Shown: positions 12,345-64,000 of the stretch, piece by piece
Numbering within the stretch: position 1 is the first letter of the stretch
How the letters are laid out: every line of letters starts with the position of its first letter
Source of the DNA: a virus
Strand: one strand, 5' to 3'
IMG/VR virus record: IMGVR_UViG_3300010413_001770
Span: 3,332 to 67,331 of that record
Length of the DNA stretch: 64,000 nucleotides
Notes under the pieces: generated by a model
The model's input: only the letters and a program-made list of their open reading frames with translations
Told to the model about the DNA's origin: nothing
Databases searched by the model: none
Position numbers and translations under genes: made by a program

Positions 12345-12743
12345 TCTCGCCTCCTGTACCCATTCTCCCCTCCACCCCCATTCCCGCCTTCTCTCGCTCG
12401 ATGATCCGCCCTTCATGCGCAATCGTGATCATCTTGGCGAGCCGCTTCATCCGCTCGACATCTGCTTCCCGGTCCGCCTTGATCGGGACGCCGAGAAGGA
12501 AATCAGACGGCTTCCACTTCTTGCCGCCGGATTTTCGGAGCGCGTTATACACCGCCGCTGTGAGTTGGCCGATCCGGTAGTCCGCCCGCTCCTCGCCGAA
12601 GGGCTCGAGCTCATAGTAGATCAGCCAATCCAGCAACTGCTGCCACGTGAGCGCCTCCAGAAGGTAGTCCGGATGCGGGAACCCGAGCGCGAGCGCGATC
12701 CGGAAGTAGATTCGTCGTCTCGGGTCCTCCCTCAGTTTTTTTT
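12334..12743 (-). CDS. Tail assembly chaperone, -1 frameshift extension (lambda gpT-like, DUF4035-type)
   Basis: The -1 frame after the A-run reads KKLREDPRRRIYFRIALALGFPHPDYLLEALTWQQLLDWLIYYELEPFGEERAD. Confidence 0.8.
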
Positions 12744-13153: not shown

Positions 13154-14251
13154 CTAAGACAACGGTCCGGACTCAAAGTACTTACACTGAGACTGTAGCG
13201 TATTCCAATTACTGGTAATAGTAATACCTGGAGATCCGGCGGAACTCACGTATGTATTACCATTCCCGTCTACTGAATAGTCATCCAAGTCGAACACTTT
13301 CACAGAATCCAGATAACATCGTACGTTTCTCCCTTCAACTTCTATTTTCATGTCGTGCTCATCTGATAACGGCCACTCATAGGTACTACCCGCTTGCCAC
13401 TCTAATACAGCTTCTGGATCGCCTGAACTGGTCGCTTTCCTCCACCGGATCAATGAAAACCGCCCAACGTTGGAAAAGTTGTCCAAAATCTTCCACACGA
13501 AGGCGTACAGATCATCGGTTGGACTTCCGACTTCTCCGGACCCGATAGCCCGAGCCAATACTCCGAAGAAATCTCCCCCTAGTCCAGCTCCAGCTCGAAG
13601 AAACGTCCCCAACGTGTAATAGTCAGCCGACGAGTCAACCTCTTCCGCCCAGTAGTAACTCTCACCGTAAGAATCAAACGCAGACTCATTCGTGGCATAC
13701 AGTAGAATAGCAGATCGTTTCGGCGGAGTTTGAAATGTACTATATGTCCAGGATTGGCCACTATCCATAGTGTGGTCGATCAGATCCGTATTGGTAGCAC
13801 CGACAAAGTTATCGTAGTAACTATCCGCTACTGGAGGAGTTGGAGGAACAACTATAGGTCCTGGCTTACCATCAATCTTTATATCTACTCTACAAATCAC
13901 CTCCTCGCCGAGATCTGCCACCACGTCGACATTAACCACGAACCCGTCGAGAGTAAACGCGTCCCCCGACTGGAGGTCGAGCGTGTAGTCCTCCGGGTCG
14001 TCGCTCTCCAACCCGTCGATGAAATCCTCATACTCTGTTCTCAGGAAATTGAGCGCGAGAGCTAGGCTTCCACCGTCCCGCATGCCGGCGATGAACTCGC
14101 GGTAGCCGCCGTCCGAGTCCATGTTCGTGACGTCGATCAGGTCTACTGCGCGCCCGTTCCAGCTCAAGTCCACAATCTCGGCAATCAGAGCCCCGCCGCT
14201 CCCAAACCCGAGCGTGGAGTTCTTGCCCGCTAGTGCACTCGAACGCGCCAT
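13154..14251 (-). CDS. Second tail tube paralog with a C-terminal lectin-like domain
   Basis: The N-terminal ~125 aa are clearly similar to 14407..14811 (MARSSA.AGK, VTNMDSDGGY.E.I...DGG), followed by a PPTPP linker and a ConA-like domain. Confidence 0.85.
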   Translation of the reverse strand: MARSSALAGKNSTLGFGSGGALIAEIVDLSWNGRAVDLIDVTNMDSDGGYREFIAGMRDGGSLALALNFLRTEYEDFIDGLESDDPEDYTLDLQSGDAFTLDGFVVNVDVVADLGEEVICRVDIKIDGKPGPIVVPPTPPVADSYYDNFVGATNTDLIDHTMDSGQSWTYSTFQTPPKRSAILLYATNESAFDSYGESYYWAEEVDSSADYYTLGTFLRAGAGLGGDFFGVLARAIGSGEVGSPTDDLYAFVWKILDNFSNVGRFSLIRWRKATSSGDPEAVLEWQAGSTYEWPLSDEHDMKIEVEGRNVRCYLDSVKVFDLDDYSVDGNGNTYVSSAGSPGITITSNWNTLQSQCKYFESGPLS

Positions 14252-14406
14252 CCGACCTCCTGCTACCGCTACCACTACCGCCGCCGATCCTCAAAAAACC
14301 GCCCACCCCTACCCTCCGACGGGCCGAGGTACTGGAGAGCGAAAGGAGGGAACCCTCGTTCCCCCGGCCGCATTCGGACGTCCCAGGAGGATCGGTGCTT
14401 ACGTCA

Positions 14407-15764: not shown

Positions 15765-16114
15765 CAGAGAATCGCTTTCCGGACCGTGATCGTCCCGGCT
15801 ACGTTCGGCGTGGACTGGTAGACGCGGATTGCGTACGCGGCGGCGAGGAGCATCGGGTTGGTGATCTCCTCCGCGCTCAAGCTCGAGAGGCTTCCCTTCC
15901 AGAGAACACCCCCGACCTCGAGTTCCTGGTCGGCATGCACGATCGACCGAGAGACGAACGTGTCTCCCATACTGGTCTGGAAGCGCTCCGCCTTGTCGAC
16001 CCACCGACCAGTGATCTCGACCGGCGTGTCATACGTGTAGCCGCCCGTCCCGTCCGGGGTGGGCGCCGCCCAATACACCAACGCGTGAATCAGATAACGG
16101 TCGACCCAGCTCAT
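15764..16114 (-). CDS. Head-closure (stopper) protein
   Basis: VYWAAPTPDGTGGYTYDTPVEITGRW motif; 116 aa; position in the neck module. Confidence 0.72.
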   Translation of the reverse strand: MSWVDRYLIHALVYWAAPTPDGTGGYTYDTPVEITGRWVDKAERFQTSMGDTFVSRSIVHADQELEVGGVLWKGSLSSLSAEEITNPMLLAAAYAIRVYQSTPNVAGTITVRKAIL

Positions 16115-16803
16115 GCGCCAACCTTCCCGTGCCACAACTGGTTGTCCATAAAGTCTCGCACGGCAGGCCCGTTCCAAGCAAGTTCCGCCCACTCGATCAC
16201 GGACTGGAGCTCCCCAAGATCCCCGCCGAGGGCTCGCGCCGGCCACACTTCCCGGAAATCGATTCCGGAGAACCGTTCCCCGGTCGTCAGGTCCCGGATG
16301 ATCTCGAGTTGCCGGTCGACCCAGACACGCCACTCTTCCCGGGTCTGGTACGCCCGCATGAACGCAGTCCGCAAGCAGGAGGACACAACGTCGTCCGGGT
16401 CCCGGCGGACGATCACCCACCGAGCCGTCGGGAACGCCTCCGCCCACTCCGGCCACACGAGGAGCATTTTTGGCTCTTTGTAGAACCAAGGGCCACTCAC
16501 GTACCCTTGCCGGCGAATAATCTCCAGGACGTCGCCGCGGAGATCCGGATAGGACGCTAACCGGTAGATGTCCGGAAAGCCGCGCTGGCCGAGTGGGTCC
16601 GCCCCCATTCTCCGAAAGTAGGGCTTGATGGTCCGGTTCCGGATCTCGTTGTTCTCGAACATCCCCTTCCGGTTGTGCTTACTCGGTCCTACGAGCTCCC
16701 CTCCCCAGGCGCCACACAGTTGAATAATCCCAGCAACCAGGCTGGTGCCCGACCGCGGCATCCCGGTGATCAGAATCGGCCGGCACGTGTGCGTTCGGTC
16801 CAT
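16111..16803 (-). CDS. PAPS-dependent sulfotransferase
   Basis: ILITGMPRSGTS (5'-PSB loop), KEPK, and IVRRDPDDVVSS (3'-PB motif). Confidence 0.85.
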   Translation of the reverse strand: MDRTHTCRPILITGMPRSGTSLVAGIIQLCGAWGGELVGPSKHNRKGMFENNEIRNRTIKPYFRRMGADPLGQRGFPDIYRLASYPDLRGDVLEIIRRQGYVSGPWFYKEPKMLLVWPEWAEAFPTARWVIVRRDPDDVVSSCLRTAFMRAYQTREEWRVWVDRQLEIIRDLTTGERFSGIDFREVWPARALGGDLGELQSVIEWAELAWNGPAVRDFMDNQLWHGKVGA

Positions 16804-16993
16804 GGCTACCCTTCCCGGTTTTCCGCAAACAGACAACAGCCGATGGAACGGAATCCTCGATAGAGACGCACGGGTCGTCCCCCTCGGATCGGCACGGGGA
16901 TGGAACACCAGCCGAAGGCGTGCTCAGAGAGCGGATTTCTGCGAATGTGATGACACGAGCCGCACATGGGGATGTCCCCGTCCGCTCTCCGGG

Positions 16994-19687
16994 TTACCCG
17001 ATACCATTGCCAAGATACGCGTCCTGCACCCATCGGTCCCCTACGTTATGGGGCTTCAGTCGTCCGTGAAAGCAGATGATGTCTGCATCGGTCGGAGGGC
17101 CACCGTTCTTGAGACAGTCCCTCTTGTAGGAGTAGACGCGGGCGTACTCCTGAATCGGGCGGATCGTGCGCCCGGACTCAGCCGAGACCCGCGTGTAAAT
17201 GTACTCCTGGTCGCCTCGGAATGAGTTCATGTTCGTCCGGTCGAAATCGTACAGCAAGAAGGATAGATCCCCGCGCCAAGACATAATCCCGGAGAGCCAT
17301 CCGCCGCGAAGACGGCGGGCGGGAGAGAAGGGGACTAGCATACGGATGTCCGTCGGAGGGACACGAGCGGCCGCTTCCACGAGACGGTCGATCGGTTTCA
17401 GGATAACGGTATCCAGATCGAGATAGAGCACCGGATGCCGGATCGAGAAGAGCTCGAGCTTGGACCACCAGCCGGGGAGGTGCCGGTCCAACCGAATGCA
17501 GTCAAGGCCGGAAAGGTAGCGATCCGTGAGCACGACGAACGAGTACGGCGTCGTGACGTTTCGAGCGACCATCGACTGCAACGTCCGGACGTTTTCGTCG
17601 GAATAGTCGCCGCCGGAGCGGAGGACACACGCGATGATCGGGTGGGAGCCGGCGGCGCTCTCGACGTCCTGGACCGAGAGAAACCGGCTCTTGATGCTAC
17701 GGACCGGAAGAGGAGGAGACTGTTGCTCCAGCTCCGGCTGCGGTTCCAGATCTCGGATAGACGCGTGCCCGCTGGAGGATCGCTTGGCGGGTTTTCGCTC
17801 TCCGGCGGAATCGAGAGCTTTCCGCTTTGCCCGCGGCGGCTTTCTCTGTTTGCTCCTCTCTCGCTGCTTGACCCGGGACTGCACTTGCCTCTTCGCAGCG
17901 AGTGTCGGCAGCGAGACGGCCGCAGTGATGGCATCCTCAACCCGGTCTTCTCTATCCCCACTCCCAGTCCCGGCCCCGATCACCCGGATTGCTTCTGCGG
18001 CAAACTCATCCGCGGTCGACCGGTCCGTGAACACTGGCCAGTACGTTTTCCGCCGCACGCTCGGAGGAACGATGTTCCACGCGAACCTCCTATCTACACC
18101 CCCCGTGTAGAAGTACTCGTGATACAGGAGCACAGTCGGCACACCCCACGCTGCCGACATAATCGATATCCCGGAGTTTGCCCCTACCAGGCCGGCCGCC
18201 CCACGAATCAGCCCGAAAACCTCCTCAAGCGTCGTCTGGCCGCGAAGATCGACTGTCCCGGTCGGCATGGCGCGGATGAGAGAATTCAGAACGTCGTCCT
18301 GAAGGTCCCATTCGGCGCCCACGAACACGGGACGAGCTCCGGTCTCGGCAACGATTCTCCGGCAGGCCCGGATGATGTCCGGGAGCTTGTAGCGGCGGAA
18401 CACGTACTTGTTCGTCCCCTGGAAGACCCAGTAGAAGACCAGGTAGCGGTCGCCGAAGGACCGGATCGCGTCCTCACGAACCGCCTCTTCCCGCAAGGAG
18501 ATGAATCTCGGGAGATCCCACTCGACCGTCAAGTCCGGGTCCACCTCCTCGAGTGCTTTTCCGGCCCGCTGATACCCGTTCCACGTCAGGAAGTAGTCAC
18601 AGCCGAGGATGTCCCGGAAGATGGTGCGCCCCTGACGCAAATATGCCTCGATCCAGATCGGGTCCCGGGCGTTGAAGCGGACCTCGTCGGCGGAGTGGAG
18701 AAACGGAAACATCTTCAGGAAGGGGAAGGACCGGGCGTGAGAGTCGAATTCCTTCGCTCGGGGTGCCGCAATGTAGGCTTCGACCGGGGGCGTGACGCCC
18801 TCCCGGCGCAGTAAGGATTGCAGCTTCGTGAGCGGCCAGTAGACGTCGCCCACGCCCGGCGGCAGGAGAACGGATTTTCGGGCTTGCGGCGGCTTGCGGA
18901 CGCGCCAGCATAATTTGGTCGGGTCCGGGTGTGAGAGTCCTGAGATCTGAAACCCGGTCGAGCGGAGAAGGTCTCGGAATTGCCCCTCCGTCCAGTACCA
19001 GATGTGCTCGATTCGCTTCCAGTGCCCGCCGTCCTCCTCGGGGCGGGACGGCCAGAAGCGGGGAATCTCGATTATGGCCTCCCCGTCCTCCGCCAGCACG
19101 CGAAAGAGCTCGGCTAGGAAGCGGTCCGGCCGAAGCGTGTGCTCCACGACGTCCATGCAGACGATACGGTCGAACGAGTCGGTCGGGAAGTGAATGTCCT
19201 CGAAGCGGCGGTAGTAGATGTGGTCGGACTGCGGGGAGTAACTGTAGCGCCCCACCTCGCAGCCGTAGGCGTCGATCCCCTCGGAACGGCAAACATCTAC
19301 GAGAGCCCCGGAGCCACAGCCGACATCTAGAAACCGTCGCGCCGATCGAAGGGAGAAGCGTTGAAACAGCCGCCGGCAACGGGCGAGGTCCGACTGGTGC
19401 GTCGACACGCCGTAGTCAGCGCGAACGGGCGGGTATTGGGACGCGTAATAGTTCGCGTACTCCTCCTCGGTCGCGAACGGAAGATCCGTCTGCCGGACAA
19501 CGCCGCACGACCGGCATGTCCGGATCGGGATATCGGCGGCGGACTGCGTTCCCGTCTTTTCGGTGATCAGGCCGCGGCGCTCGGATAACGTAGACCGCGT
19601 CTCGCCGCAGTAGCAGGGTAGGTTCACGGCGTGTGTTTTGAGTGCTTTCTCGGTTGGACCGAGTTCGGTGGGCGTGAACGCTACCAT
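16994..19687 (-). CDS. Tri-domain fusion: class I SAM methyltransferase, GT9 (heptosyltransferase-like GT-B) and GT8-like GT-A
   Basis: MTase: FLDVGCGSG, DVVEH. GT9: GVGDVYW, LVGANSGISIMSAAWGVPTVLL. GT-A: WWSKLELF, LYLDLDTVI, GDQEYI, ICFHGRLKP. Confidence 0.85.
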   Translation of the reverse strand: MVAFTPTELGPTEKALKTHAVNLPCYCGETRSTLSERRGLITEKTGTQSAADIPIRTCRSCGVVRQTDLPFATEEEYANYYASQYPPVRADYGVSTHQSDLARCRRLFQRFSLRSARRFLDVGCGSGALVDVCRSEGIDAYGCEVGRYSYSPQSDHIYYRRFEDIHFPTDSFDRIVCMDVVEHTLRPDRFLAELFRVLAEDGEAIIEIPRFWPSRPEEDGGHWKRIEHIWYWTEGQFRDLLRSTGFQISGLSHPDPTKLCWRVRKPPQARKSVLLPPGVGDVYWPLTKLQSLLRREGVTPPVEAYIAAPRAKEFDSHARSFPFLKMFPFLHSADEVRFNARDPIWIEAYLRQGRTIFRDILGCDYFLTWNGYQRAGKALEEVDPDLTVEWDLPRFISLREEAVREDAIRSFGDRYLVFYWVFQGTNKYVFRRYKLPDIIRACRRIVAETGARPVFVGAEWDLQDDVLNSLIRAMPTGTVDLRGQTTLEEVFGLIRGAAGLVGANSGISIMSAAWGVPTVLLYHEYFYTGGVDRRFAWNIVPPSVRRKTYWPVFTDRSTADEFAAEAIRVIGAGTGSGDREDRVEDAITAAVSLPTLAAKRQVQSRVKQRERSKQRKPPRAKRKALDSAGERKPAKRSSSGHASIRDLEPQPELEQQSPPLPVRSIKSRFLSVQDVESAAGSHPIIACVLRSGGDYSDENVRTLQSMVARNVTTPYSFVVLTDRYLSGLDCIRLDRHLPGWWSKLELFSIRHPVLYLDLDTVILKPIDRLVEAAARVPPTDIRMLVPFSPARRLRGGWLSGIMSWRGDLSFLLYDFDRTNMNSFRGDQEYIYTRVSAESGRTIRPIQEYARVYSYKRDCLKNGGPPTDADIICFHGRLKPHNVGDRWVQDAYLGNGIG

Positions 19688-20427
19688 AACGCGATGTCCT
19701 CCCTGGAATAGCCGGCGGCGGTGAGCAACGGGTGGATGATCGAGGCTCGGTTCTTGAGGTAACGGACTTCCGCCCATTTGGGGCCGAGCAAGTGCTGGAT
19801 GGCGTGGATCTCGCCGGCCGCATAGTAATCTGCGAACGGATTCCCGGGTGTCGGATCCACACGCCGCCACTTCCGCGCGATCTTTCCGATCGTGAGTCCC
19901 CGCCGAGAGACGTCAATCCCGCAGTGGGTCGCCACTCTCCGGATAAGATCCCGGCGCTCCCAGTACGTTTTCCTGGCGTCGACCGGAAAAAAGCACACGT
20001 TCGGGTGATGCGCGAACCGCCGAGCGATCTCCACGAACCCGTCCACGATGAAGAAGTGGCGGAACTCCGGGTGGCGCGTTTCGCGCGTGAGGATCGCCGC
20101 CAGGGGGTCTCGGAGAGGGATGACGACGGGGAAGAGGGCGGCAAGTGCGAGGGCGGCGCGATACCCGATCGACTTGTAGTTGATCCCGAGCTGTTGAACG
20201 GAGTTGAAGTCCATCTCCAGGTCGACATCTAGCGTCCGGATGATGGGGAAGTGACCGCGGACGATCGTCGGGGAGCGGAGGACGGTCGACCCGCGCGTCA
20301 AATAGGAGATGTCGAGAACAGCCGCGTCAGGACACAAGCTCCGGAGAACCGTCGTGACGAAACCAGTACCGGTGTGCTGCACACTGAGGACGAAGATCAC
20401 GGGGGGAGTGGGAAGCGTCGGCGGCAT
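19681..20427 (-). CDS. Sulfotransferase-fold P-loop protein (variant HTGT loop)
   Basis: IFVLSVQHTGTGFV and VIPLRDPLAAILT. Confidence 0.6.
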   Translation of the reverse strand: MPPTLPTPPVIFVLSVQHTGTGFVTTVLRSLCPDAAVLDISYLTRGSTVLRSPTIVRGHFPIIRTLDVDLEMDFNSVQQLGINYKSIGYRAALALAALFPVVIPLRDPLAAILTRETRHPEFRHFFIVDGFVEIARRFAHHPNVCFFPVDARKTYWERRDLIRRVATHCGIDVSRRGLTIGKIARKWRRVDPTPGNPFADYYAAGEIHAIQHLLGPKWAEVRYLKNRASIIHPLLTAAGYSREDIALW

Positions 20428-20452
20428 CTTGGGCGTTTCTTCTCCCCCTCCG

Positions 20453-21178
20453 CTACCAGCGTGGGAGCATGAGGTCGGAGTCCCGGTAGCCGACCGAGTG
20501 CAGAAATGGCAGCAGTGTCGGCAGGCATGCGCTCAAGTACGTGAGTGCCGGATGGTATTCGCCACCAAAGAGCTCGAGGATGCGGCCCCAATCCCGGGCA
20601 TCGTACGCGGGGCGGAAAGGGTTCTCCTCCCCGGTCGTGTTCTCCGGTTCCCACTTCTCCGCCGTCATGCGGAGGGCGGAATCGTGAACAAACGGAGTGA
20701 GCCGACAGTGATCGACGAGAGCAAGAATCCGGGCATACCGAACTTCCAGCCGCTCCCGGTGGATGTCCACCGGCAGACAATACACCGTCTGATACCGGGC
20801 GATGGTCGCCAGCTGCCGATAGCCATCCACCACGATCCGTAGATCCGTATCCGGCATGCGGTGTGCCCGTGTGAGGATCGCCGCGACGGGGTCCCGAACT
20901 GTAGTGACCGACCGGAGCGTGCGGCACAGAAAGGTGACGGCGTCCGCGTGGATCCCGACCCGGCGCCCCGTCCCCGGGTCGATTTCCGGGAGGTGCGTGT
21001 GGAGAATCGCTGAAGCCGGGAGGCCGCCGACCGGTTGACCGTCCGAAGAGTCCGGTCCGCGCGTCACGATCGCCAGGCACTGGTGGATCTCCGGCAGGAT
21101 TTGACGCAGAAACCGCAGCAGGAACTGCGTCCCCGTGTGGGGGACGGTCGGGACGAACACGACGCCGCGGTTCTCCAT
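20453..21178 (-). CDS. Sulfotransferase-fold P-loop protein, paralog of 19681..20427
   Basis: VFVPTVPHTGTQFL and TTVRDPVAAILT; shares VDG, PVD, HC and NPF motifs with its neighbour. Confidence 0.6.
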   Translation of the reverse strand: MENRGVVFVPTVPHTGTQFLLRFLRQILPEIHQCLAIVTRGPDSSDGQPVGGLPASAILHTHLPEIDPGTGRRVGIHADAVTFLCRTLRSVTTVRDPVAAILTRAHRMPDTDLRIVVDGYRQLATIARYQTVYCLPVDIHRERLEVRYARILALVDHCRLTPFVHDSALRMTAEKWEPENTTGEENPFRPAYDARDWGRILELFGGEYHPALTYLSACLPTLLPFLHSVGYRDSDLMLPRW

Positions 21179-21910
21179 CTATACTCTCCGAATCACGAGC
21201 TCGGTCACGGCGGACGAGCGGTTGGGTGACACGCCGAGGCAACAGGCGTGGACGATCTGGTCGGCGGCTTCTGCGGGGTCGATCAGTTGGTGGTAGTCCG
21301 GTCGCCACGCCATCATGTCCGTCCGCAACGCGCCGACGAACACGTCGAGGAGATGGATGCCGTACCCGGTCGCCTCCAAGCGGAGAGCGGACACGAAGCC
21401 GCGGAGACCAAACTTGCTGGCCGAGTAGGCGGTCTCGTGGTGTCCGCCGCGCTGCCCGGCGAGCGAGTTCACGAACGCAATGAGCCCGGAGCGGCGGCGG
21501 GCGAACACGGGCCACAACTCCCGCGTGAGCAGCATCGGAGCGAGCAGATTCACGTCGAGCGTGAGCCGGATCTCGTCCTCCGTGAGCGTTTCGATCGACT
21601 GCGCCACCCGGACCCCCGCGTTGTGGACCACGACGTCCACGTCCCAGACGTCGGCGGCGGTGACAAGCCGCCGACGGGTATCCCACTGCGTGATGTCGCC
21701 GTGGACACGGATCAAGCGTTCGGTGCCGTCTCGAGAAGCGGAGGTGGACCGCTCGAGGAGGATCAACCGCCAACCCAGGAGTGCGAACCGTTTGGCGATC
21801 TCCGCCCCCAAGCCTCGGTTCGCCCCGGTTATCAGCGCAGTCTTCGTGCTCGCTCGCGTTCCGTCTTGGAGGACGTTTCCGCGTTCACTTTCGGTTCTTT
21901 CGGCACCCAT
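21179..21910 (-). CDS. Short-chain dehydrogenase/reductase
   Basis: TGANRGLG, HNAG and YSASK motifs. Confidence 0.9.
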   Translation of the reverse strand: MGAERTESERGNVLQDGTRASTKTALITGANRGLGAEIAKRFALLGWRLILLERSTSASRDGTERLIRVHGDITQWDTRRRLVTAADVWDVDVVVHNAGVRVAQSIETLTEDEIRLTLDVNLLAPMLLTRELWPVFARRRSGLIAFVNSLAGQRGGHHETAYSASKFGLRGFVSALRLEATGYGIHLLDVFVGALRTDMMAWRPDYHQLIDPAEAADQIVHACCLGVSPNRSSAVTELVIRRV

Positions 21911-22299
21911 GGAATCTCCCAGTCCGGCAAACGAATCGTATCGGCATCGTCGTGGTGCGTGGATATCTCGAGGAAGGTAACGGCTTTTCCGGCTCGACCT
22001 CGGAATGTGTGCGCCGTCCCGGCCGGTAGCGTGAGTGATAACCCATCCTCCAGTAAGTACGTGACAGCCCGGTTACCGGTCTCGAAGGGCCAATCTCTAG
22101 AGTAGAGCTCAAGCTCTCCTGCCACGACCCAGAACGTCTCTGTTTTCCGGAGATGGTAATGCCAGCCGCAGTGCTTGCCGGGGTTGACGGACAGCACCTT
22201 GCCGCAGTACCGGTCGTTGTTGACGATCCAGCGCTCTTCTCCCCAGGACTTTTCCACCAGGATGCGGCGCTCTAGTTGGGACATCTGCGACCCACTCAT
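21832..22299 (-). CDS. Cupin, mannose-6-phosphate/lyxose isomerase-like
   Basis: VEKSWGEERW, HYHLRKTETF and PAGTAHTF cupin motifs. Confidence 0.8.
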   Translation of the reverse strand: MSGSQMSQLERRILVEKSWGEERWIVNNDRYCGKVLSVNPGKHCGWHYHLRKTETFWVVAGELELYSRDWPFETGNRAVTYLLEDGLSLTLPAGTAHTFRGRAGKAVTFLEISTHHDDADTIRLPDWEIPWVPKEPKVNAETSSKTERERARRLR

Positions 22300-22326
22300 A
22301 CGCTTCCCCTTCTCCCCCTCCCCCCA

Positions 22327-22809
22327 TCAGAAGAACGGCAGCCCGTCTCGACGCAAACAGATGGCCGCCGGCACCCCCATCAGGTACGCGTCCAGCATCG
22401 CTTTCTCGGCGGACTGTTGATCGTGCGGGAAGAACCCGTGGACGTTCTTGAATAGCCGCACCAATCCTTCCGCGTCCAGCGGCCGATGCGTCGGCCCCTG
22501 CGTTGGATAGTCCGCATTCCCTACGAGCATGACCGGCAAGTTGTGCTCATCGATATCGATCTTGATCTGCTCGAACGGTCGCTCCAGCAAGAAGGGGGTA
22601 GTGGAGTACACGATCGGCCGCAGCCCCTCCGCCGCCATCCCGGCCGCCATCGAGATCATAGACTGTTCACAGATGCCGATGTTGATGAACCGGTCCGGCC
22701 AGCGGCGCTTGAACTCCTCCGCGTCCTGGAAGACGTCGCCGATGATCAGAAGGATGCGGGGATCTCGATCCGCTAGCCGACAGATTGCACGACCGAATGC
22801 GCGCCTCAT
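22327..22809 (-). CDS. Transketolase-like pyrimidine-binding subunit (short, no C-terminal domain)
   Basis: RFINIGICEQSMISMAAGMAAEGLRP, ERPFEQI and GPTH motifs. Confidence 0.88.
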   Translation of the reverse strand: MRRAFGRAICRLADRDPRILLIIGDVFQDAEEFKRRWPDRFINIGICEQSMISMAAGMAAEGLRPIVYSTTPFLLERPFEQIKIDIDEHNLPVMLVGNADYPTQGPTHRPLDAEGLVRLFKNVHGFFPHDQQSAEKAMLDAYLMGVPAAICLRRDGLPFF

Positions 22810-23600
22810 GCGGATTCTCCGGTAGGGGGGCTCGAGTCGTCTAGGTCGTCATCCAGATCTACAGGCACCAGCTCCCGCATCGCCTGCCGCTCCTGCTCAT
22901 CCGTCAGCCACTGCGCGTGCCACGCCGGATCGTCCTCCATAAAGCTCACGCCGCGCCCCTTGATCGTCCGCGCCATCACGAGCCGGGGGCGACCACGCGT
23001 CCTCGGGCGCAAGAGCTTCGCCGTGATGGCATCCGTGTCGTGCCCATTCACACTCATGACGTCCCACTCGAGCGTCTCGGCGACGCGGCTCAAGTGCTCC
23101 ATGGGAAGGACGTCGAGGAGGCGGTCGGACCCCTGGATACCGTTCCAGTCCACAATAGCGGTTAGATTGTCCAGGCGGAAACGGGCCGCGATCATGAGGC
23201 TCTCCCACGTGGTCCCCTCCTGACACTCCCCGTCCCCGACGAGAACGTACACCTGCGTACGGACCTCTTGCCGCTTGAGCGCCATCGCCATCCCGATCGC
23301 GAAGGGGAGACCGTGCCCCAGTGACCCCGTCGTGCAGTGAATCCCGTTGGCCGGGTCCCGGACCGGGAAACCATCCAGACGCGGGTTCAGGCCTCGCTCC
23401 CGCAGGAGAACGTAGTACGGCCAGCATCCGTGCCCCTTGGAGAGCACGAACCGGTCCTCGCTCTTCATCACCCGGTCATAGAGGGAGATCAGGATCTCGA
23501 CGCACGAGAACGCTCCGCCCCAGTGATATCCGCCGTGACTCTTGGACAGCCGAATCGTTTCTCGGCGGAGCTGGCGGCTACGGTTGTCGAGTCGAACCAT
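22806..23600 (-). CDS. Transketolase-like N-terminal ThDP-binding subunit
   Basis: FVLSKGHG, TGSLGHG, GDGECQEGTTWE and TIKGRGVSFME motifs; GAGGAG RBS before ATG 23600. Confidence 0.9.
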   Translation of the reverse strand: MVRLDNRSRQLRRETIRLSKSHGGYHWGGAFSCVEILISLYDRVMKSEDRFVLSKGHGCWPYYVLLRERGLNPRLDGFPVRDPANGIHCTTGSLGHGLPFAIGMAMALKRQEVRTQVYVLVGDGECQEGTTWESLMIAARFRLDNLTAIVDWNGIQGSDRLLDVLPMEHLSRVAETLEWDVMSVNGHDTDAITAKLLRPRTRGRPRLVMARTIKGRGVSFMEDDPAWHAQWLTDEQERQAMRELVPVDLDDDLDDSSPPTGESA

Positions 23601-23625
23601 GCTCGGCGTCTCCTCTTGGTTTCGG

Positions 23626-24681
23626 TCATCCGGCATCGGAGAACCAGTTCCCTGCTTCCCCTCCCGGGACGCGGCAGTCCATGAGGACGCGGCCGGCACC
23701 GCCGAACCGAGAGGCCGATACAGCGCGCCCCACGTCCAGAAGGGAGAATCGGCGCGTGATCAGTTTGTCGATCGGCAGCCGCCCGCCGCGGTAGAGCTCC
23801 AGGTATCTCGGGATGTCGAGCTCCGGCCGAGTCATGCCGCCTTGGCTATCCAGGACGGTTTTGCCGGAATACCGGGAGACGAACTCCGGCATGATGAAGT
23901 CCGTCCCGTGCTTCGGTTGGCCGACGAGGACCAGCCGCCCGCCCCGCTTGAGGGACCGCAGCCCCGTCCGGATTACTTCCGGGACGCCGGTACAATCGAC
24001 GAACACGTCCGGAGAGTGAAATACGCTCCCCAGGTCCGTGGAGAAGTCCGTGGCGCCGAACTCGAACGCCAAAGCCGATCGGCGAGCATCCAGATCCACG
24101 CCGATGATCGGATATCCCCCGGTCAGCGACGCCCCCAGAATCGCGCTCAGTCCTACGCCGCCGCAGCCGACGATCACGATGGATTCCCCTAGTCGAAGTT
24201 TCGCTTCCCGCGTGACGACCCCCAACCCGGTCGTGACGCAGCAACCGAGGAGGGCCGCAACGTCGAGAGGGACATCCTCCCGGACCGTCGTGACCCGGCT
24301 CTCGCTCACAACAGCGAGATCCGACCAGATTGCGACCGGACCGGCACCGACGAAGCACTCCCCGGCGGACTCCATGACGCGATACCGGGGCGGTTCGGCC
24401 TCGATCCCGGCCCCGACGCGCCAGTGAAGGACGACGGAGTCGCCGACACGCACCGTCGTCACTCCAGAGCCCACCGCGAGGACTCGGCCGGCGCCCTCGT
24501 GACCCAGAAGGTGCGGCAAGTGCCGGTCCGGACCGGCGTGACCGTCGATCTCCCGTAACTGAGCCCCGCAGATACCAGCCCACTCGACATCCACGAGCAC
24601 TTGCCCGGTCTTGAGCTCCGGCACTTCCAGATCCATGATGCGGAGAGGGGTTCCCGGTTCGACCAACACGGCAGCTAGCAT
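23626..24681 (-). CDS. Zn-dependent alcohol dehydrogenase (MDR family)
   Basis: GICG, LLGHEGAG, LGCCVTTG and GCGGVG motifs. Confidence 0.9.
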   Translation of the reverse strand: MLAAVLVEPGTPLRIMDLEVPELKTGQVLVDVEWAGICGAQLREIDGHAGPDRHLPHLLGHEGAGRVLAVGSGVTTVRVGDSVVLHWRVGAGIEAEPPRYRVMESAGECFVGAGPVAIWSDLAVVSESRVTTVREDVPLDVAALLGCCVTTGLGVVTREAKLRLGESIVIVGCGGVGLSAILGASLTGGYPIIGVDLDARRSALAFEFGATDFSTDLGSVFHSPDVFVDCTGVPEVIRTGLRSLKRGGRLVLVGQPKHGTDFIMPEFVSRYSGKTVLDSQGGMTRPELDIPRYLELYRGGRLPIDKLITRRFSLLDVGRAVSASRFGGAGRVLMDCRVPGGEAGNWFSDAG

Positions 24682-24893
24682 CCGGACTCCTCCTTGGTCT
24701 CCTTGACAACACGATGACAACAGCAGTTTTTTGGATCGGTCGGTACGGTGCAGTCCTTACCCCCCTGATTGTAGTATACGTCAACGATTTCTTCCCGGGT
24801 GAAGAACTTCCAATACCGGTAGCATGCCCACAAGAGTTGCGACCGCTCAGACGCTGGGGTGTCGACTCGATCCACTGAACTGGATTCGCTCAC
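24675..24893 (-). CDS. Small Cys-containing hypothetical protein
   Basis: GTG 24893 overlaps the upstream stop; GGGAGG RBS. Confidence 0.5.
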   Translation of the reverse strand: MSESSSVDRVDTPASERSQLLWACYRYWKFFTREEIVDVYYNQGGKDCTVPTDPKNCCCHRVVKETKEESGC

Positions 24894-29440: not shown

Positions 29441-30949
29441 TTACTCCTCCTCCTCGGGGGGAGACCCGTCCGCCTCGTCTTCCGGACTCATGACGGCTGG
29501 GAACTCCCCGGCGGGCTCTTCGATAAACTCCGCGTCTTCCGCGCCGTCCTCCACGCTGGCGGCAACCTCGTCGACCGACATGCCGAGGATGTAGCGCAGG
29601 AAGGCGGAGAGCGGCATGAGGGCGCGCAGGTTCCGACTGTCGGCGTACTTCACCAGCGCTTCCGCCTTGACGCGGCTGACGATGGCCTGGTCCTTGTCGG
29701 CCGGGCCTTCGAGTGGAAGCCACTCGACCTTGTACTGGCCGCCGGCGGGGACCGGCAAGATGCCGAGCTCGATGAACGTGTCGACGGTCGGGCGGAGGAT
29801 GACCGGCTCGCAGTACTCATGCCGACGGGTGTCGATCATCCGCGTCCAGTTCTTTTCGTCAAGTCGGCTGGCGAGCTCGCCGCGCTCTGTCCCGGTCAGG
29901 ATCCGCTGCGGGATGCCGGTCGCCCCAGCCAGATTCCGGAACACGACTTCGACGTGGTCCTTGGGGCTGGAGACTTGGGGGCGAAGCTCCTTGATGTCGA
30001 TCCCCTGTAGCCGCATGTAGCGCTGAAACCCGTGGAGGTAGTTCTGGATCTCCTCGTCGAGGTCCGTGCTGGAGTCGAGCATCGCCTCCGGGTCGATGTT
30101 GAACCCGAATCCAGGGAACGCCCCCCGCCAGAACATCTCGGCCGAGCCGCCCACGAGCATCTCGAGGGAGGCGAGGTCGTTCCAGACTGGTTCCATGCGC
30201 GGCGTGCCGTAGATGTCGGACTCGGACGTGTTGTCCGCGATGTGGATGACGCGGGAGTGATGGACCTCGAGCGTACGGGAGGAGGCGTCACCAGTGGGGG
30301 ACACCTTGAGCTGGTACTCGGTCGGCTTTCCGTAGCGCGGAGAGGCGATGTTGTCGTCCCAGTGGGAGATCTTGGCGTTTCCTTCCGCACGGGGATTCAG
30401 GTAGAGGAGTCGGTCGGTCTCGGGCGCTGCGGCGGTGAGGGAGCCGGGAAGACCGAGCAGCAGAACGCCGTAACGTCCAATTCCGGCCACGATGTCCGCG
30501 CGGGTGAGGTAGTGGACGATTCGGTGGGAGCGGTCGAGCGTCGTCCAGGCGACCGAGAAGGGGCTCTCCGGGTCGCCGTCCGTGACGATGGGGGCCCGGG
30601 ACCAAGAAGCGACCGGAGGAGCGGACACGATCCGGCGGGCGACGCCCTGGCGGCGGAAACGGCCGGCGAAGTCCTCGTAGTAGAGGATCTCGGACCAGCC
30701 GAGCGCCTCGTAGAGTTTTCGTTTGGGGGTGCCGGAGCTCGAGTAATAGGAGCGGCCGAGGCGATCAGCCAGTTGCGCCCGCGACGTGATGGCGGAGGCG
30801 AGGATGGCGAGGATTTCCCGGCTGGAGACGGCCGGTTCGGTCGGTTCTGGGGGCGGCGGAGGAGTCCGCCGGGAGCCGTTACCCGCGCTTGTGGATGATT
30901 TCCGCTTCCCCGCTCCAGCTCCTGTTCCCGCTCCAGCCGCCATCAGCAT
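29441..30949 (-). CDS. Portal protein (DUF1073 type)
   Basis: After the terminase; VHHSRVIH, GGSAEMFW and IPQRILTGTERGELAS motifs. Confidence 0.88.
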   Translation of the reverse strand: MLMAAGAGTGAGAGKRKSSTSAGNGSRRTPPPPPEPTEPAVSSREILAILASAITSRAQLADRLGRSYYSSSGTPKRKLYEALGWSEILYYEDFAGRFRRQGVARRIVSAPPVASWSRAPIVTDGDPESPFSVAWTTLDRSHRIVHYLTRADIVAGIGRYGVLLLGLPGSLTAAAPETDRLLYLNPRAEGNAKISHWDDNIASPRYGKPTEYQLKVSPTGDASSRTLEVHHSRVIHIADNTSESDIYGTPRMEPVWNDLASLEMLVGGSAEMFWRGAFPGFGFNIDPEAMLDSSTDLDEEIQNYLHGFQRYMRLQGIDIKELRPQVSSPKDHVEVVFRNLAGATGIPQRILTGTERGELASRLDEKNWTRMIDTRRHEYCEPVILRPTVDTFIELGILPVPAGGQYKVEWLPLEGPADKDQAIVSRVKAEALVKYADSRNLRALMPLSAFLRYILGMSVDEVAASVEDGAEDAEFIEEPAGEFPAVMSPEDEADGSPPEEEE

Positions 30950-30962
30950 CCCCTCAACCGGT

Positions 30963-32432
30963 CTACCGCGCCCCGAATGTGCCCGCCCGCTTCACGCGCA
31001 TGAGATTATTGTAGGCTTTTGCGACCGAATCAATCAAATCATCGTGAATCGACGACCCCCCAGTGATATCGACATGATCCGCTTGCGAGATAAGATCGGC
31101 ATTCCAGGGGGAGTCCACAAGGAAGACGTTACCCGCTTCCGCCGCTACAGCGAGCGGCCGATAGTAGGCTAGTTTCGACTTGGTGGTCGGGACGCCGAGG
31201 AAGTCGTGGCCGGCGAGAACGTAGCGCTTGTAGTAGTGGATGGTCGTTTTCCCGGACGCGCCGGGCTCTTCCTCCATCCGGATCGGGACGTCGAAGCCGT
31301 CGCGCGCCGCCGTCTCCCGGATGAGCTGTTCGACGCTTGCCGGAGTGGCGCGCGTGTAGGCGAGGTCGAGGACGTGGAAGTCCCCCTCCGGAGTGCGGTT
31401 GGCCCGCGTCCCGGCGGTGGCGTCCGGGCCCTTCTTCCGGGCGGTCCGGTACTCCTCCTTCGAGGGGGTGGCGGCGAGATCCCAGAACCGGATGCGGTTC
31501 TGCGGCCGGACATCCGGGGCGACCGGGATGATGCGCCACCAGTGCTTACGGAAGAGCCCGGTCGAGTCTTCCACGTCCCAGTCGCCGTCCTCGAGCTTGG
31601 CTCGGGTAGTGGCATCCAGGTGGCTGAGCGTACGGAGGTACTCTTCCCGGTCCAGGTAGGGATTATCCGCGAGTTTACTAGGAATGAACACAGTCCCTGG
31701 CGAGCGCGTCGAGGCGGTAATGTAGCGGTCCTTGACCCACATGCCGCGGATGTACTCCTCGGGTAGCGGGGGGTTGGACGCGGCGCGGAAACGGATCGGG
31801 ACATCCGCGAGCGTGAGCCCGGACTGGGAGCGCGAGAGACCGCCGCGGTTCTTCGGCCGCCGGAGCCGGGAGAACATGAACAGCGCTTGATGCTCCCGGA
31901 TCGAGACGGCTTCGTCGAGGCCGACGAACTGATAGGCGGCCGACTTGTGGTTGAGGTGGGCGCGTGGCTGGTCGAGAAAGGAAAACGTGAGGACGGCAGG
32001 TTCGGCGAGGGCGGACCCGCCGGGGAGAGACTTGGAGCGGTTCTTCCCGGTCGGGAACTCCCACTGGTCGTACTTACCGTTGTAGTGGGCGCCGGTGCCG
32101 GTGAACCACACTTCCGCGCGGGGGACCAAGCCGTCGGGTTTGACGAGGTTGGTGTTGGTGTCGCGGAAGAGGACGGCGGAGTAGCCCGGGACGTCGACGT
32201 ACTGGAGCGCCGCCATCAGGAGGGCGTCCGATTTGCCGCCTCCGACCGCGCCCCCGTAGAACGCGTCCTCGCAGGTGAGAAGGAGGAAGGCGGTTTGCCG
32301 GGGAGTCGGCTTGTGGGGACAGAACCTAGTGGCGAGACGGGGCTTGAGTAGAGGACCCAGTTGCGTCCGGATCGCTGTCGGGGTCAGTCGCGCCGGCGTC
32401 TTCGTCTTCGGTATCAGGATTGGAGTATCCAT
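30963..32432 (-). CDS. Terminase large subunit
   Basis: YGGAVGGGKS Walker A, GLDEA Walker B, ASNP, nuclease FWDLAA and HDDLIDS. Confidence 0.93.
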   Translation of the reverse strand: MDTPILIPKTKTPARLTPTAIRTQLGPLLKPRLATRFCPHKPTPRQTAFLLLTCEDAFYGGAVGGGKSDALLMAALQYVDVPGYSAVLFRDTNTNLVKPDGLVPRAEVWFTGTGAHYNGKYDQWEFPTGKNRSKSLPGGSALAEPAVLTFSFLDQPRAHLNHKSAAYQFVGLDEAVSIREHQALFMFSRLRRPKNRGGLSRSQSGLTLADVPIRFRAASNPPLPEEYIRGMWVKDRYITASTRSPGTVFIPSKLADNPYLDREEYLRTLSHLDATTRAKLEDGDWDVEDSTGLFRKHWWRIIPVAPDVRPQNRIRFWDLAATPSKEEYRTARKKGPDATAGTRANRTPEGDFHVLDLAYTRATPASVEQLIRETAARDGFDVPIRMEEEPGASGKTTIHYYKRYVLAGHDFLGVPTTKSKLAYYRPLAVAAEAGNVFLVDSPWNADLISQADHVDITGGSSIHDDLIDSVAKAYNNLMRVKRAGTFGAR

Positions 32433-63042: not shown

Positions 63043-63375
63043 CTATGGCCCGTCCACGTGAAGAAGCACGACCATCTTCATGTTCTGCGCCGGACTCGCG
63101 TCCGTCGTCCAGTCGATCTCGATCTCGACCCGGTCGCCACTGTCCCCACCCTGGATGTACAGCCAGAACGTGTCGTTCGAGTCCAGGGCGTCATTACTCG
63201 AGTCCAGAATGTCGGCCGTGACGTCGGCGCCCGTGTCCCGGTCGTATGCCGTGGCGTCCGGGCCGCTCGCTACCGTCTCTCCGCTGTCCATCCAATCCGT
63301 GAGGTTGAAGCTCAGCACCAGTTCTTCGCTCGCCTTCTTGATGAACACTGCGTCGTACATGGAGTGTCTGGCCAT
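63043..63375 (-). CDS. Phage fibre-adaptor-like beta protein
   Basis: FIKKASEELVLSFNLTDWMDSGETVAS...YIQGGDSG...WTT resembles small Ig-like fibre adaptors (K.P.e.lDy.fDw..wL..getI.S...v.GG..G). Confidence 0.55.
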   Translation of the reverse strand: MARHSMYDAVFIKKASEELVLSFNLTDWMDSGETVASGPDATAYDRDTGADVTADILDSSNDALDSNDTFWLYIQGGDSGDRVEIEIDWTTDASPAQNMKMVVLLHVDGP

Positions 63376-63376
63376 A

Positions 63377-64000
63377 TCAGATTCCCCTCTCATGCCAGTC
63401 CGGGACCGGCGCAAACTTGTCGATCAGCCATCCGAGTGGTCTCCCCGCCTGCTTCCAGTTCCCGCCCTCCCAAAGCCAGCGCGAGTAGGCCCGCGCCGCA
63501 TCGATCTCGGCTTGACGGATCGGGTAGGGGAACGTGAACCCGCGCCCTTGCGTCCGGAACATGTGGCCGAACCACGTGCGCTTGTTGACGACTTGTCGGC
63601 CGCCGGATAGCCATGCTTTACACGCGACTTCGACGCCCACCTGTCCCCAGCCGCCGTGCTGCTCGTCGAGTCCCTCGAGCTCCAGATACCGGTCCCTGAG
63701 CTGGAACCAGCAGGCCCCCACGCTACACATCACGTCCGCGATCTTCGGTTGCGCTTCCGGCCGGCGCTTGTAAGCGCCCCAGTACTGGAACTGTAGATTC
63801 CGGTCGAACCGCGCAAAGTCGGTCCGGCGGGCGAGCCGCGGTTTCCAGACCAGTTCCCGGCTCACCGGCTTCCCGCACTCCTTGCACGGATCGGGGGGCC
63901 CCTGATATCGCCGATGCCCCTCCTCGCAGACCCAGTCGAACGCGTGTAGATTGTACATCCTCGGAATGGTCGTCGTCTCGCGGCTGAGCTCCCCGCTCTC
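63377..64000 (-). CDS. Polypeptide GalNAc-transferase (GT27)-like / GT2 glycosyltransferase, C-terminal part (runs off the right edge)
   Basis: Open from base 64000 (ESGELSRETTTIPRMYNL...). GACWF..RDRYLELEGLDE..GGWGQVGVEVACKAWLSGG...WFGHMFR...FTFP parallels the GalNAc-T [17 protein letters not shown]...VGHVFR motif. Confidence 0.75.
   Translation of the reverse strand, partial: ESGELSRETTTIPRMYNLHAFDWVCEEGHRRYQGPPDPCKECGKPVSRELVWKPRLARRTDFARFDRNLQFQYWGAYKRRPEAQPKIADVMCSVGACWFQLRDRYLELEGLDEQHGGWGQVGVEVACKAWLSGGRQVVNKRTWFGHMFRTQGRGFTFPYPIRQAEIDAARAYSRWLWEGGNWKQAGRPLGWLIDKFAPVPDWHERGI

Follow-up and report, generated by a model that had tools for sequence, protein, structure and literature searches.

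An open reading frame (ORF) at the end of a stretch of viral DNA encodes the C-terminal part of a glycosyltransferase (GT) related to the eukaryotic GT27 polypeptide N-acetylgalactosamine (GalNAc) transferases. With a probability of roughly 0.6, this enzyme is the initiating Ser/Thr O-glycosyltransferase for the phage's own SPSA tracts, the long serine- and proline-rich repeats of its fibre-like and tail-tip proteins, and the phage probably sugar-coats its own fibres. The stretch analysed, termed the window, is 64,000 nucleotides long and corresponds to bases 3332–67331 of the 67,331-bp viral record IMGVR_UViG_3300010413_001770 (IMG/VR); judged from its genes, it belongs to a tailed phage. From its sequence, the enzyme is predicted to be a Mn2+-dependent, soluble, single-domain GT-A transferase, with the eukaryotic GT27 enzymes as its nearest characterised relatives. 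It is termed GT27-like and is not filed as a GT27 member, because it has neither a lectin domain nor a membrane anchor and lacks the Glu of the WGGE motif. The family is related to GT27 and very probably works similarly, with a different or differently bound donor.

The GT27-like gene is present in two pieces.
63377–64000, minus strand: 207 C-terminal codons and the stop codon of the GT27-like enzyme, an open frame that runs off the window end with its 5′ end open.
Contig bases 359–3 (locus L002, outside the window), same (minus) strand: N-terminal piece of 119 codons, with the ATG at contig bases 359–357.

The ORF of 207 codons on the minus strand exists as reported in a first-pass annotation that was made from the letters of the window, and its TGA stop is at 63379–63377. 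GC content at third codon positions (GC3) is 0.81 in the fragment and matches that of the real genes of the window (62% GC). The window end is also the contig end, and the gene therefore appears to be cut by assembly rather than by biology. That annotation proposed that the full gene be sought beyond the window and inspected for a DxH motif; the rest of the gene was found at the contig's other end, where the frame within the first 3.4 kb (L002) terminates in K-L-D-A-H-C-A-V-G-D-G-F-D-V-K-L-M and thus has D-A-H.

The closest full-length relative of the protein, P0123, has 316 residues. By BLASTP, the N-terminal piece is 84% identical to P0123 residues 11–108, and the C-terminal piece is 79% identical to residues 112–314. 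The two pieces are collinear on P0123, and therefore exactly three residues are missing between them. Two dangling bases at the contig start, GC, are compatible with the Ala found in P0123 at the same position. Some 7 nucleotides are unassembled between the two pieces and the whole protein has ∼329 residues. As the pieces lie at opposite ends of the contig, the genome is circular or circularly permuted. The ATG of the GT27-like gene overlaps the stop of the upstream GT2 gene by 14 nucleotides. It is very improbable that the gene is broken or inactive through truncation or a frameshift at the ends of the contig, and that the tracts are plain unglycosylated linkers. Such a reading could draw on the unassembled junction and on the IMG/VR class of the record, linear and 87% complete. 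However, both pieces are open, have high GC3 and are collinear with P0123 save for three residues, the dangling GC suits the expected Ala codon, and the catalytic invariants are all present.

Kinship to GT27 is evident at the sequence level. The 207-residue fragment alone matches 14 PDB sequences at E ≤ 10, and 12 of these are GT27 enzymes, the best being GalNAc-T2 with an E of 0.004 (phmmer, 177,635 PDB sequences). P0067, a full-length homologue of 386 residues, reaches GT27 with an E of 4.5e-7 in a PDB search, and two stretches match, the DxH region and the Gal/GalNAc-T motif. When a profile of 49 single-domain relatives is compared with the PDB, the top 13 matches are all GT27 (E 2.2e-11 to 9e-8) and both halves of the protein are covered; bacterial GT2 enzymes come next (E ∼1e-6), with the N-terminal half alone. 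Thus, the likeness to GalNAc-transferases that had been noticed at first sight is above chance, with phmmer, P0067 and the profile all favouring GT27.

The fold gives the same ranking. The AlphaFold2 model of P0123 has a mean predicted local distance difference test score (pLDDT) of 93.4 and a predicted template modelling score (pTM) of 0.91. Among the Foldseek matches of this model listed to rank 50, all 28 are GT27, with E values of 1e-15 to 3.5e-13. VIA-align places 29 GT27 entries at Z 23.5–27.2 (∼268 aligned residues, 2.8 Å); outside GT27 the top-scoring chain is a Leptospira GT2 (Z 19.7), and WrtF, K4CP and SpsA come after it at 17–19. The comparison of GT27 with GT2 that the first-pass annotation called for, by profile scores and by superposition of a model, therefore puts GT27 first by sequence and by structure. 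The contrary outcome that it named was an ordinary GT2 without DxH as the best match; GT27 is best and D-A-H is present.

Domain libraries contribute less. PF00535 matches P0123 residues 16–117 with 47.5 bits against a cut-off of 23.3; this family spans GT27 catalytic domains too, and hence does not separate GT2 from GT27. Pfam, PHROGs and NCBIfam give nothing useful for the 207-residue fragment, and PHROGs gives nothing for full-length P0123. Glyco_transf_7C (PF02709) has no match in the fragment at E ≤ 1 or in P0123 at E ≤ 0.01, and one neighbouring ESM-Atlas cluster has PF02709 in 52% of its members.

Several motifs of the fragment can be placed by alignment.
63554–63718, minus strand: 55-residue Gal/GalNAc-T-like motif (fragment residues 95–149), from PDB alignments.
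63629–63649, minus strand: W-G-Q-V-G-V-E within the 55-residue motif, from alignment to GalNAc-T.
63554–63574, minus strand: W-F-G-H-M-F-R with the metal-binding His, from alignment to GalNAc-T.
63521–63538, minus strand: F-T-F-P-Y-P, part of the presumed lid loop after His-x-Phe-Arg, from alignment.
63779–63790, minus strand: F-Q-Y-W aromatic motif, opposite the peptide-groove region of GalNAc-T2 around Phe280/Trp282/Tyr284, from alignments.
63875–63928, minus strand: Zn-ribbon-like insert (C-x3-H ... C-x2-C; CEEGH...CKEC; fragment residues 25–42), situated after the DxH strand and before the acceptor-side motifs.

In GalNAc-T2, Asp224, His226 and His359 are the Mn2+ ligands, Trp331 is a key catalytic residue and Arg362–Ser373 form a flexible loop (PMC4432651). 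Pro-x-Pro peptide recognition is by Phe280, Trp282 and Phe361, and the mutants W282A and F361A are nearly inactive (PMC4432651). In the phmmer alignment, the window is identical to GalNAc-T2 at Trp331, Gly332, Glu337, His359, Phe361, Arg362, Phe280 and Tyr284. Among the 49 relatives, D94, H96, H257, F259, R260, W229, G230, Y184 and W185 (P0123 numbering, as for all residues given in this form) are invariant, and F182 nearly so. The Mn ligands Asp224, His226 and His359 have their equivalents in D94, H96 and H257, and Phe361 and Phe280 theirs in F259 and F182.

The same phmmer alignment bears out three details that had been read from the letters: the metal-binding His and the T-F-P of the loop are kept, and the Glu of WGGE is replaced by Val, with Gln-Val-Gly of the window opposite Gly333-Glu334-Asn335. 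This position is Met, Val or Phe in the sequences shown of the family alignment. Donor handling is predicted to be probably unlike that of GT27, as family members uniformly have a hydrophobic residue in place of the Glu of WGGE. The sole internal block of low confidence in the P0123 model, residues 261–270 (mean pLDDT 63), comes directly after Arg260, at the site of the GT27 lid loop. A Zn-knuckle-like insert had also been noted, and it is conserved family-wide: across the 49 sequences, C136 and C153 never vary and C150 is nearly invariant, and some other family members have CxxC instead of C-x3-H.

The fold begins ∼25 residues past the start codon. The 19-residue Kyte-Doolittle value peaks at 0.97 in P0123 and at 1.79 in the N-terminal piece of the window's protein, where the peak covers the Ala/Pro-rich leader and the first strand. 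A membrane-bound or secreted enzyme was considered and rejected, as the Kyte-Doolittle profile shows no hydrophobic anchor. Pfam searches of P0123, P0024 and P0002 reveal no ricin domain.

Two proteins of the window carry the tracts that are the presumed acceptors.
512–3214, minus strand: 900-residue fibre-like protein with two very long SPSA-type tracts (Pfam PT repeat, E 5e-24); presumed acceptor.
6489–9371, minus strand: 960-residue tail-tip protein (phrog_8917) with a ∼170-residue SPS(S/A/G)-type tract, directly after the tape measure gene; presumed second acceptor.

Ser, Thr, Pro and Ala make up 65% of the fibre-like protein. For the non-repeat part of the tail-tip protein, a search of IMG/VR yields one distant relative alone.

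The GT27-like family is large and mainly phage-borne, with 2477 longer proteins and 1263 of similar length at E ≤ 0.001 after clustering at 90%. Relatives are encoded on at least 403 IMG/VR contigs and, among 185,579 species genomes, on 60 contigs, all from metagenome-assembled genomes (MAGs). Neighbours of the family in the ESM-Atlas are 90–100% viral. A tblastn search of 50,697 GenBank phage records with P0123 gives a single match, of 27% identity and E 4e-4, in an unannotated 4.2-kb record.

The association of the gene with serine tracts was surveyed at 140 loci (80 viral, 60 MAG), each taken with flanks of at most 10 kb. By composition, an ORF rich in Ser/Thr plus Pro occurs at 59 of the 80 viral loci. 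A periodic regular expression detects a tract at 44/80 viral and 26/60 MAG loci, and the 95 ORFs concerned are on the GT strand, with 0 on the opposite strand. ORFs with an alternating-Ser/Thr tract are found at 62/80 viral and 37/60 MAG loci. Where at least 5 kb is available on both sides the proportion is 58/62; it is 40/75 where flanks are truncated. All 151 tract ORFs lie on the GT strand, as do 2040 of all 2268 ORFs. A nearest tract ORF was scored at 98 loci: it lies downstream of the GT27-like gene at 73 of them and upstream at 24, and the distance is at most 1 kb at 43 and at most 3 kb at 79. When the 2268 ORFs are clustered all against all, one super-cluster of GT, methyltransferase and tract proteins emerges, and the next flanking family occurs at 24 of the 140 loci. 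As the most widespread outside family is confined to these 24, the loci do not represent one lineage.

Whole genomes provide a control for proximity. In five MAG genomes (0.7–2.1 Mb) searched with the tract protein of the window, all 22 matches fall into one ORF per genome. Each of these ORFs, of 1546, 908, 3985, 538 and 1477 residues, shares the strand of the GT27-like gene and begins no more than 3 kb downstream of it. Among 44 additional genomes, 35 have tract matches at E ≤ 1e-5, 114 matches altogether, and tract and GT positions were compared by hand tally. Of these matches, 66 share a contig with a GT27-like match that is no more than 20 kb away, and at least one such case occurs in 28 of the 35 genomes. 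The chance expectation is ∼0.5–7%, the share of these genomes spanned by a 40-kb neighbourhood.

The pairing is also found in cellular surroundings. Two contigs of the candidate phyla radiation (CPR), L126 (744 kb) and L099 (455 kb, Parcubacteria), have a module composed of the GT27-like gene, a serine-tract ORF and the second glycosyltransferase D2 described below. The modules are flanked by cellular genes: those for TatC, an IS200 transposase, an asparagine-synthase-like protein, Ig-like surface proteins, dockerin and cohesin. The GT-tract pairing therefore exists outside phages too, and ultra-small bacteria may use the module on their own surface proteins.

These distributions bear on whether the acceptor is a protein at all. 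The enzyme might act on polysaccharide of the host envelope, on a lipid carrier or on phage DNA, with the tracts nearby because the fibre module is a usual site for accessory genes. The database label GT2, 'involved in cell wall biosynthesis', would fit such an acceptor, and the many sugar-tailoring genes of the phage could make a polysaccharide. Yet the tract pairing persists across unrelated flanks, the tract is essentially restricted to the neighbourhood of the GT27-like gene in whole genomes, and the pairing recurs in the CPR contexts with TatC, cohesin/dockerin and Ig-like surface proteins. In addition, no membrane segment is seen (maximum Kyte-Doolittle value 0.97 in P0123). A non-protein acceptor is thus judged quite unlikely, and DNA glycosylation in particular is given low weight because of the tract synteny.

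A second glycosyltransferase gene, D2, is encoded next to the fibre-like protein.
1–508 (plus contig bases 3117–3331; locus L144 118–840), minus strand: D2, a 240-residue GT-A, of which the first 169 codons are in the window.

D2 starts 3 nucleotides past the stop of the fibre gene. Pfam has no match for D2, and its model (pLDDT 92.6) shows a divergent GT-A fold; the best Foldseek match is SpsA (E 2.2e-6), and the matches listed are GT-A transferases throughout. The nearest folds are SpsA, WrtF, B4GALNT1 and GlcAT-P, and an E-D-D motif is invariant. D2 is homologous to the C-terminal domain of ∼550-residue relatives, in which it follows the GT27-like domain (E 6e-13), and the two domains are fused in most relatives. 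In this phage, then, what is usually one two-domain enzyme is encoded by two separate genes. D2 is present at 107 of the 140 loci, as 99 stand-alone matches and 65 inside long ORFs. Still longer relatives of 920–1190 residues (e.g. P0002) have a GT27-like domain, a second PF00535 domain and a Methyltransf_24 domain, and are in effect one-chain glycan assembly lines.

Perhaps D2 or another GT starts the glycan and the GT27-like enzyme takes a later step in the same tract pathway, extending on a sugar acceptor. This division of labour is unlikely, if deserving of attention: D2 is itself a GT-A with an invariant E-D-D, is widespread at the loci and sits 3 nucleotides past the fibre stop, and the GT27-like enzyme has lost the sugar-side Glu of WGGE. 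However, among solved structures the acceptor-side half of the GT27-like enzyme is matched by peptide-glycosylating GT27 only, the Pro-recognising Phe280 and Phe361 have invariant or nearly invariant counterparts, and the nearest folds of D2 are glycan-extending enzymes.

The preferred reading, initiation on the tracts by the GT27-like enzyme, also has a number of observations weighing against it. Some concern the protein. The window's gene is interrupted by the ∼7-nucleotide assembly gap and its frame is taken to be intact, and the structural model is of the homologue P0123 (79–84% identical) and not of the window's own protein. The one Pfam match is PF00535, on the N-terminal half of P0123; the fragment has none. 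The residue opposite Glu334 is Val, and Trp282 falls in a two-residue gap in the phmmer alignment or opposite Tyr in the profile alignment to GalNAc-T1, in which that Tyr belongs to the invariant Tyr-Trp pair. There is no lectin domain, with the stop 61 residues past the metal-binding His. Others concern the pairing. Four of the 62 well-flanked loci have no tract ORF, and nine of the 44 further genomes have no tract match at E ≤ 1e-5. Of the 114 tract matches, 40 are on other contigs, many at contig edges or of low identity, and eight are more than 20 kb from the GT27-like match on the same contig. These eight lie on three contigs, G011:C1 (56 kb), G018:C40 (37 kb) and G027:C1 (43 kb), with GT and tract near opposite ends, so that closing each contig into a circle would bring the two side by side; the three are probably circular phage genomes binned into MAGs. 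D2, a second GT-A, is coupled to the fibre gene and could be the initiator. Lastly, the acceptor is a putative one, proposed from gene neighbourhood. A complex prediction in which the GT alignment was paired with a 46-residue segment of the fibre tract had a score of 0.00, with a mark of 0.32, and gave no answer either way.

The first-pass annotation had named the protein the best candidate for the initiating transferase of the mucin-like tracts. Of this, the role on the tracts has gained from a strong and lineage-independent synteny; that the enzyme is the initiator and that its acceptor is a peptide are what we infer. The serine tracts are suggested as acceptors by the synteny together with the conserved groove aromatics.

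The remaining genes of interest include structural genes and a set of sugar-modifying genes.
30963–32432: terminase, family-library match.
29441–30949: portal, family-library match.
13154–14275: major tail protein, family-library match.
10149–12422: tape measure, family-library match.
16111–16908, minus strand: sulfotransferase (Sulfotransfer_3), family-library match.
16994–19870, minus strand: 958-residue fusion protein with methyltransferase, GT9 and additional GT domains in one chain, family-library matches.
63043–63414, minus strand: gene downstream of the GT27-like gene, weakly like the podophage fibre-tail adaptor Gp77 (PF23148, 25.2 bits, below the 27-bit cut-off).
L002 1089–1844 and 1860–2864, minus strand: radical-SAM/SPASM protein and Sulfotransfer_2 protein, between the methyltransferase and GT2.

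Past the tape measure, the order on the same strand is tail-tip protein, fibre-like protein, D2, glycan genes, GT27-like gene and adaptor-like gene. Contig bases 3190–346 encode a TylF-type methyltransferase, the Sulfotransfer_2 protein, the radical-SAM/SPASM protein and GT2. The likely ATG of the adaptor-like gene, 63375–63373, is 1 nucleotide past the GT27-like stop, and its weak likeness to Gp77 places the GT27-like gene inside the fibre-attachment module. In the structural arm, 16111–24720 on the minus strand carries the Sulfotransfer_3 gene, the methyltransferase-GT9-GT fusion, a cupin, a transketolase split into two genes and a Zn-dependent dehydrogenase. This sugar-tailoring set gives a hint of an uncommon sugar, which may be branched and sulfated.

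A pathway can be proposed from these components. Late in infection, in the host cytoplasm, the GT27-like enzyme would bind a nucleotide sugar via D-A-H and the downstream His, as homology to GT27 predicts, and the lid loop would close over the donor. The sugar would then be transferred to Ser/Thr hydroxyls of the SPSA tracts in the fibre-like protein (512–3214) and the tail-tip protein (6489–9371), as synteny and the groove aromatics suggest. The glycan may subsequently be extended or decorated by D2, GT2, the methyltransferase-GT9-GT fusion, methyltransferases, two sulfotransferases and the radical-SAM/SPASM protein.

GT27 enzymes are regarded as a eukaryotic invention. At odds somewhat short of even, the phage and CPR-bacterial enzymes may form a prokaryotic and viral sister group of eukaryotic GT27; mucin-type logic, in which a soluble DxH GT-A starts O-glycans on Ser/Pro-rich tracts, would then exist outside eukaryotes. 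If so, many uncultured phages would build a methylated and sulfated mucin-like fibre coat, ultra-small bacteria would modify surface proteins likewise, and the GT27 lectin domain would be a later eukaryotic addition, in place of which the enzymes discussed here have the Zn-ribbon hairpin and a fused second GT-A. The GT27-like family offers a directly testable prokaryotic counterpart, with a GT27 active-site architecture and a genetic tie to mucin-like tracts. Widespread glycan coats on environmental phage fibres are suggested, with a bearing on adsorption, protease resistance and evasion of immunity and defence. Small soluble enzymes and simple repeat tags may also be of use in glyco-engineering. 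As to annotation, the labels 'GT2, cell wall biosynthesis' on such phage genes are probably misleading.

A literature search, with subscription journals mostly outside its coverage, found no paper on a phage or prokaryotic GT27-like family or on its pairing with serine-repeat fibres. Comparisons can be made, however, with several known systems. Ordinary GT2 enzymes such as SpsA, the chondroitin polymerase K4CP and WrtF share with the phage enzyme the PF00535 N-terminal nucleotide-binding half and the GT-A fold. They differ in structural score (Z 17–19.7 versus 23.5–27.2 for GT27) and in matching the N-terminal half alone in the profile search. Ordinary GT2 enzymes have DxD and a catalytic base, whereas the phage family has DxH and no acid at the catalytic-base position.

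The serine-rich-repeat adhesins GspB and Fap1 of Gram-positive cocci have S-x-S-x repeats that are glycosylated in the cytoplasm by the soluble GtfA-GtfB, which is encoded beside the acceptor gene, and then by extending GTs. GtfA-GtfB is an initiating GT-B (GT4) pair that transfers N-acetylglucosamine. The phage system resembles this one in having long alternating-serine repeats as presumed acceptors and a transferase gene beside the acceptor gene. It is unlike it in that the phage enzyme is predicted from the P0123 model to be a GT-A of GT27-like type, and in that the phage tracts are Pro-rich.

Virion glycosylation in mycobacteriophages, the subject of work by Freeman et al. from 2023, is a further parallel; methyltransferases reportedly accompany the glycosyltransferases in these phages. 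A tblastn search of the 50,697 phage records with P0123 shows no mycobacteriophage match, the Che8 gp110/Corndog gp38 group included. As in the phage described here, phage-encoded glycosyltransferases serve the phage's own structural proteins; the mycobacteriophage glycans differ in that they are not on long fibre repeat tracts. Phage virion glycosylation is already known: two reports describe phage-encoded glycosyltransferases that modify the phages' own structural proteins in Che8, Corndog and Myrna, with glycans on the C-termini of capsid and tail-tube subunits (PMC12363180, PMC12619734).

The closest comparison is with GT27 itself, represented by GalNAc-T1, T2 and T10, Drosophila PGANT9 and Toxoplasma GalNAc-T3. 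Unlike these, the phage enzyme is a soluble protein of ∼329 residues without a ricin-type lectin domain, membrane anchor or stem. Its family has a hydrophobic residue for the WGGE Glu and a Zn-ribbon-like hairpin after the DxH strand, is often fused to D2 and methyltransferases, and is found in phages and in CPR and other MAGs, not in eukaryotes. The two nevertheless have in common a GT-A catalytic domain with DxH and a downstream His, a Trp-Gly that opens the Gal/GalNAc-T motif, a His-x-Phe-Arg followed by the T-F-P lid loop, and the groove aromatics Phe280 and Phe361. The likely acceptors of the phage enzyme, Ser/Pro-rich mucin-like tracts, are also of the GT27 kind.

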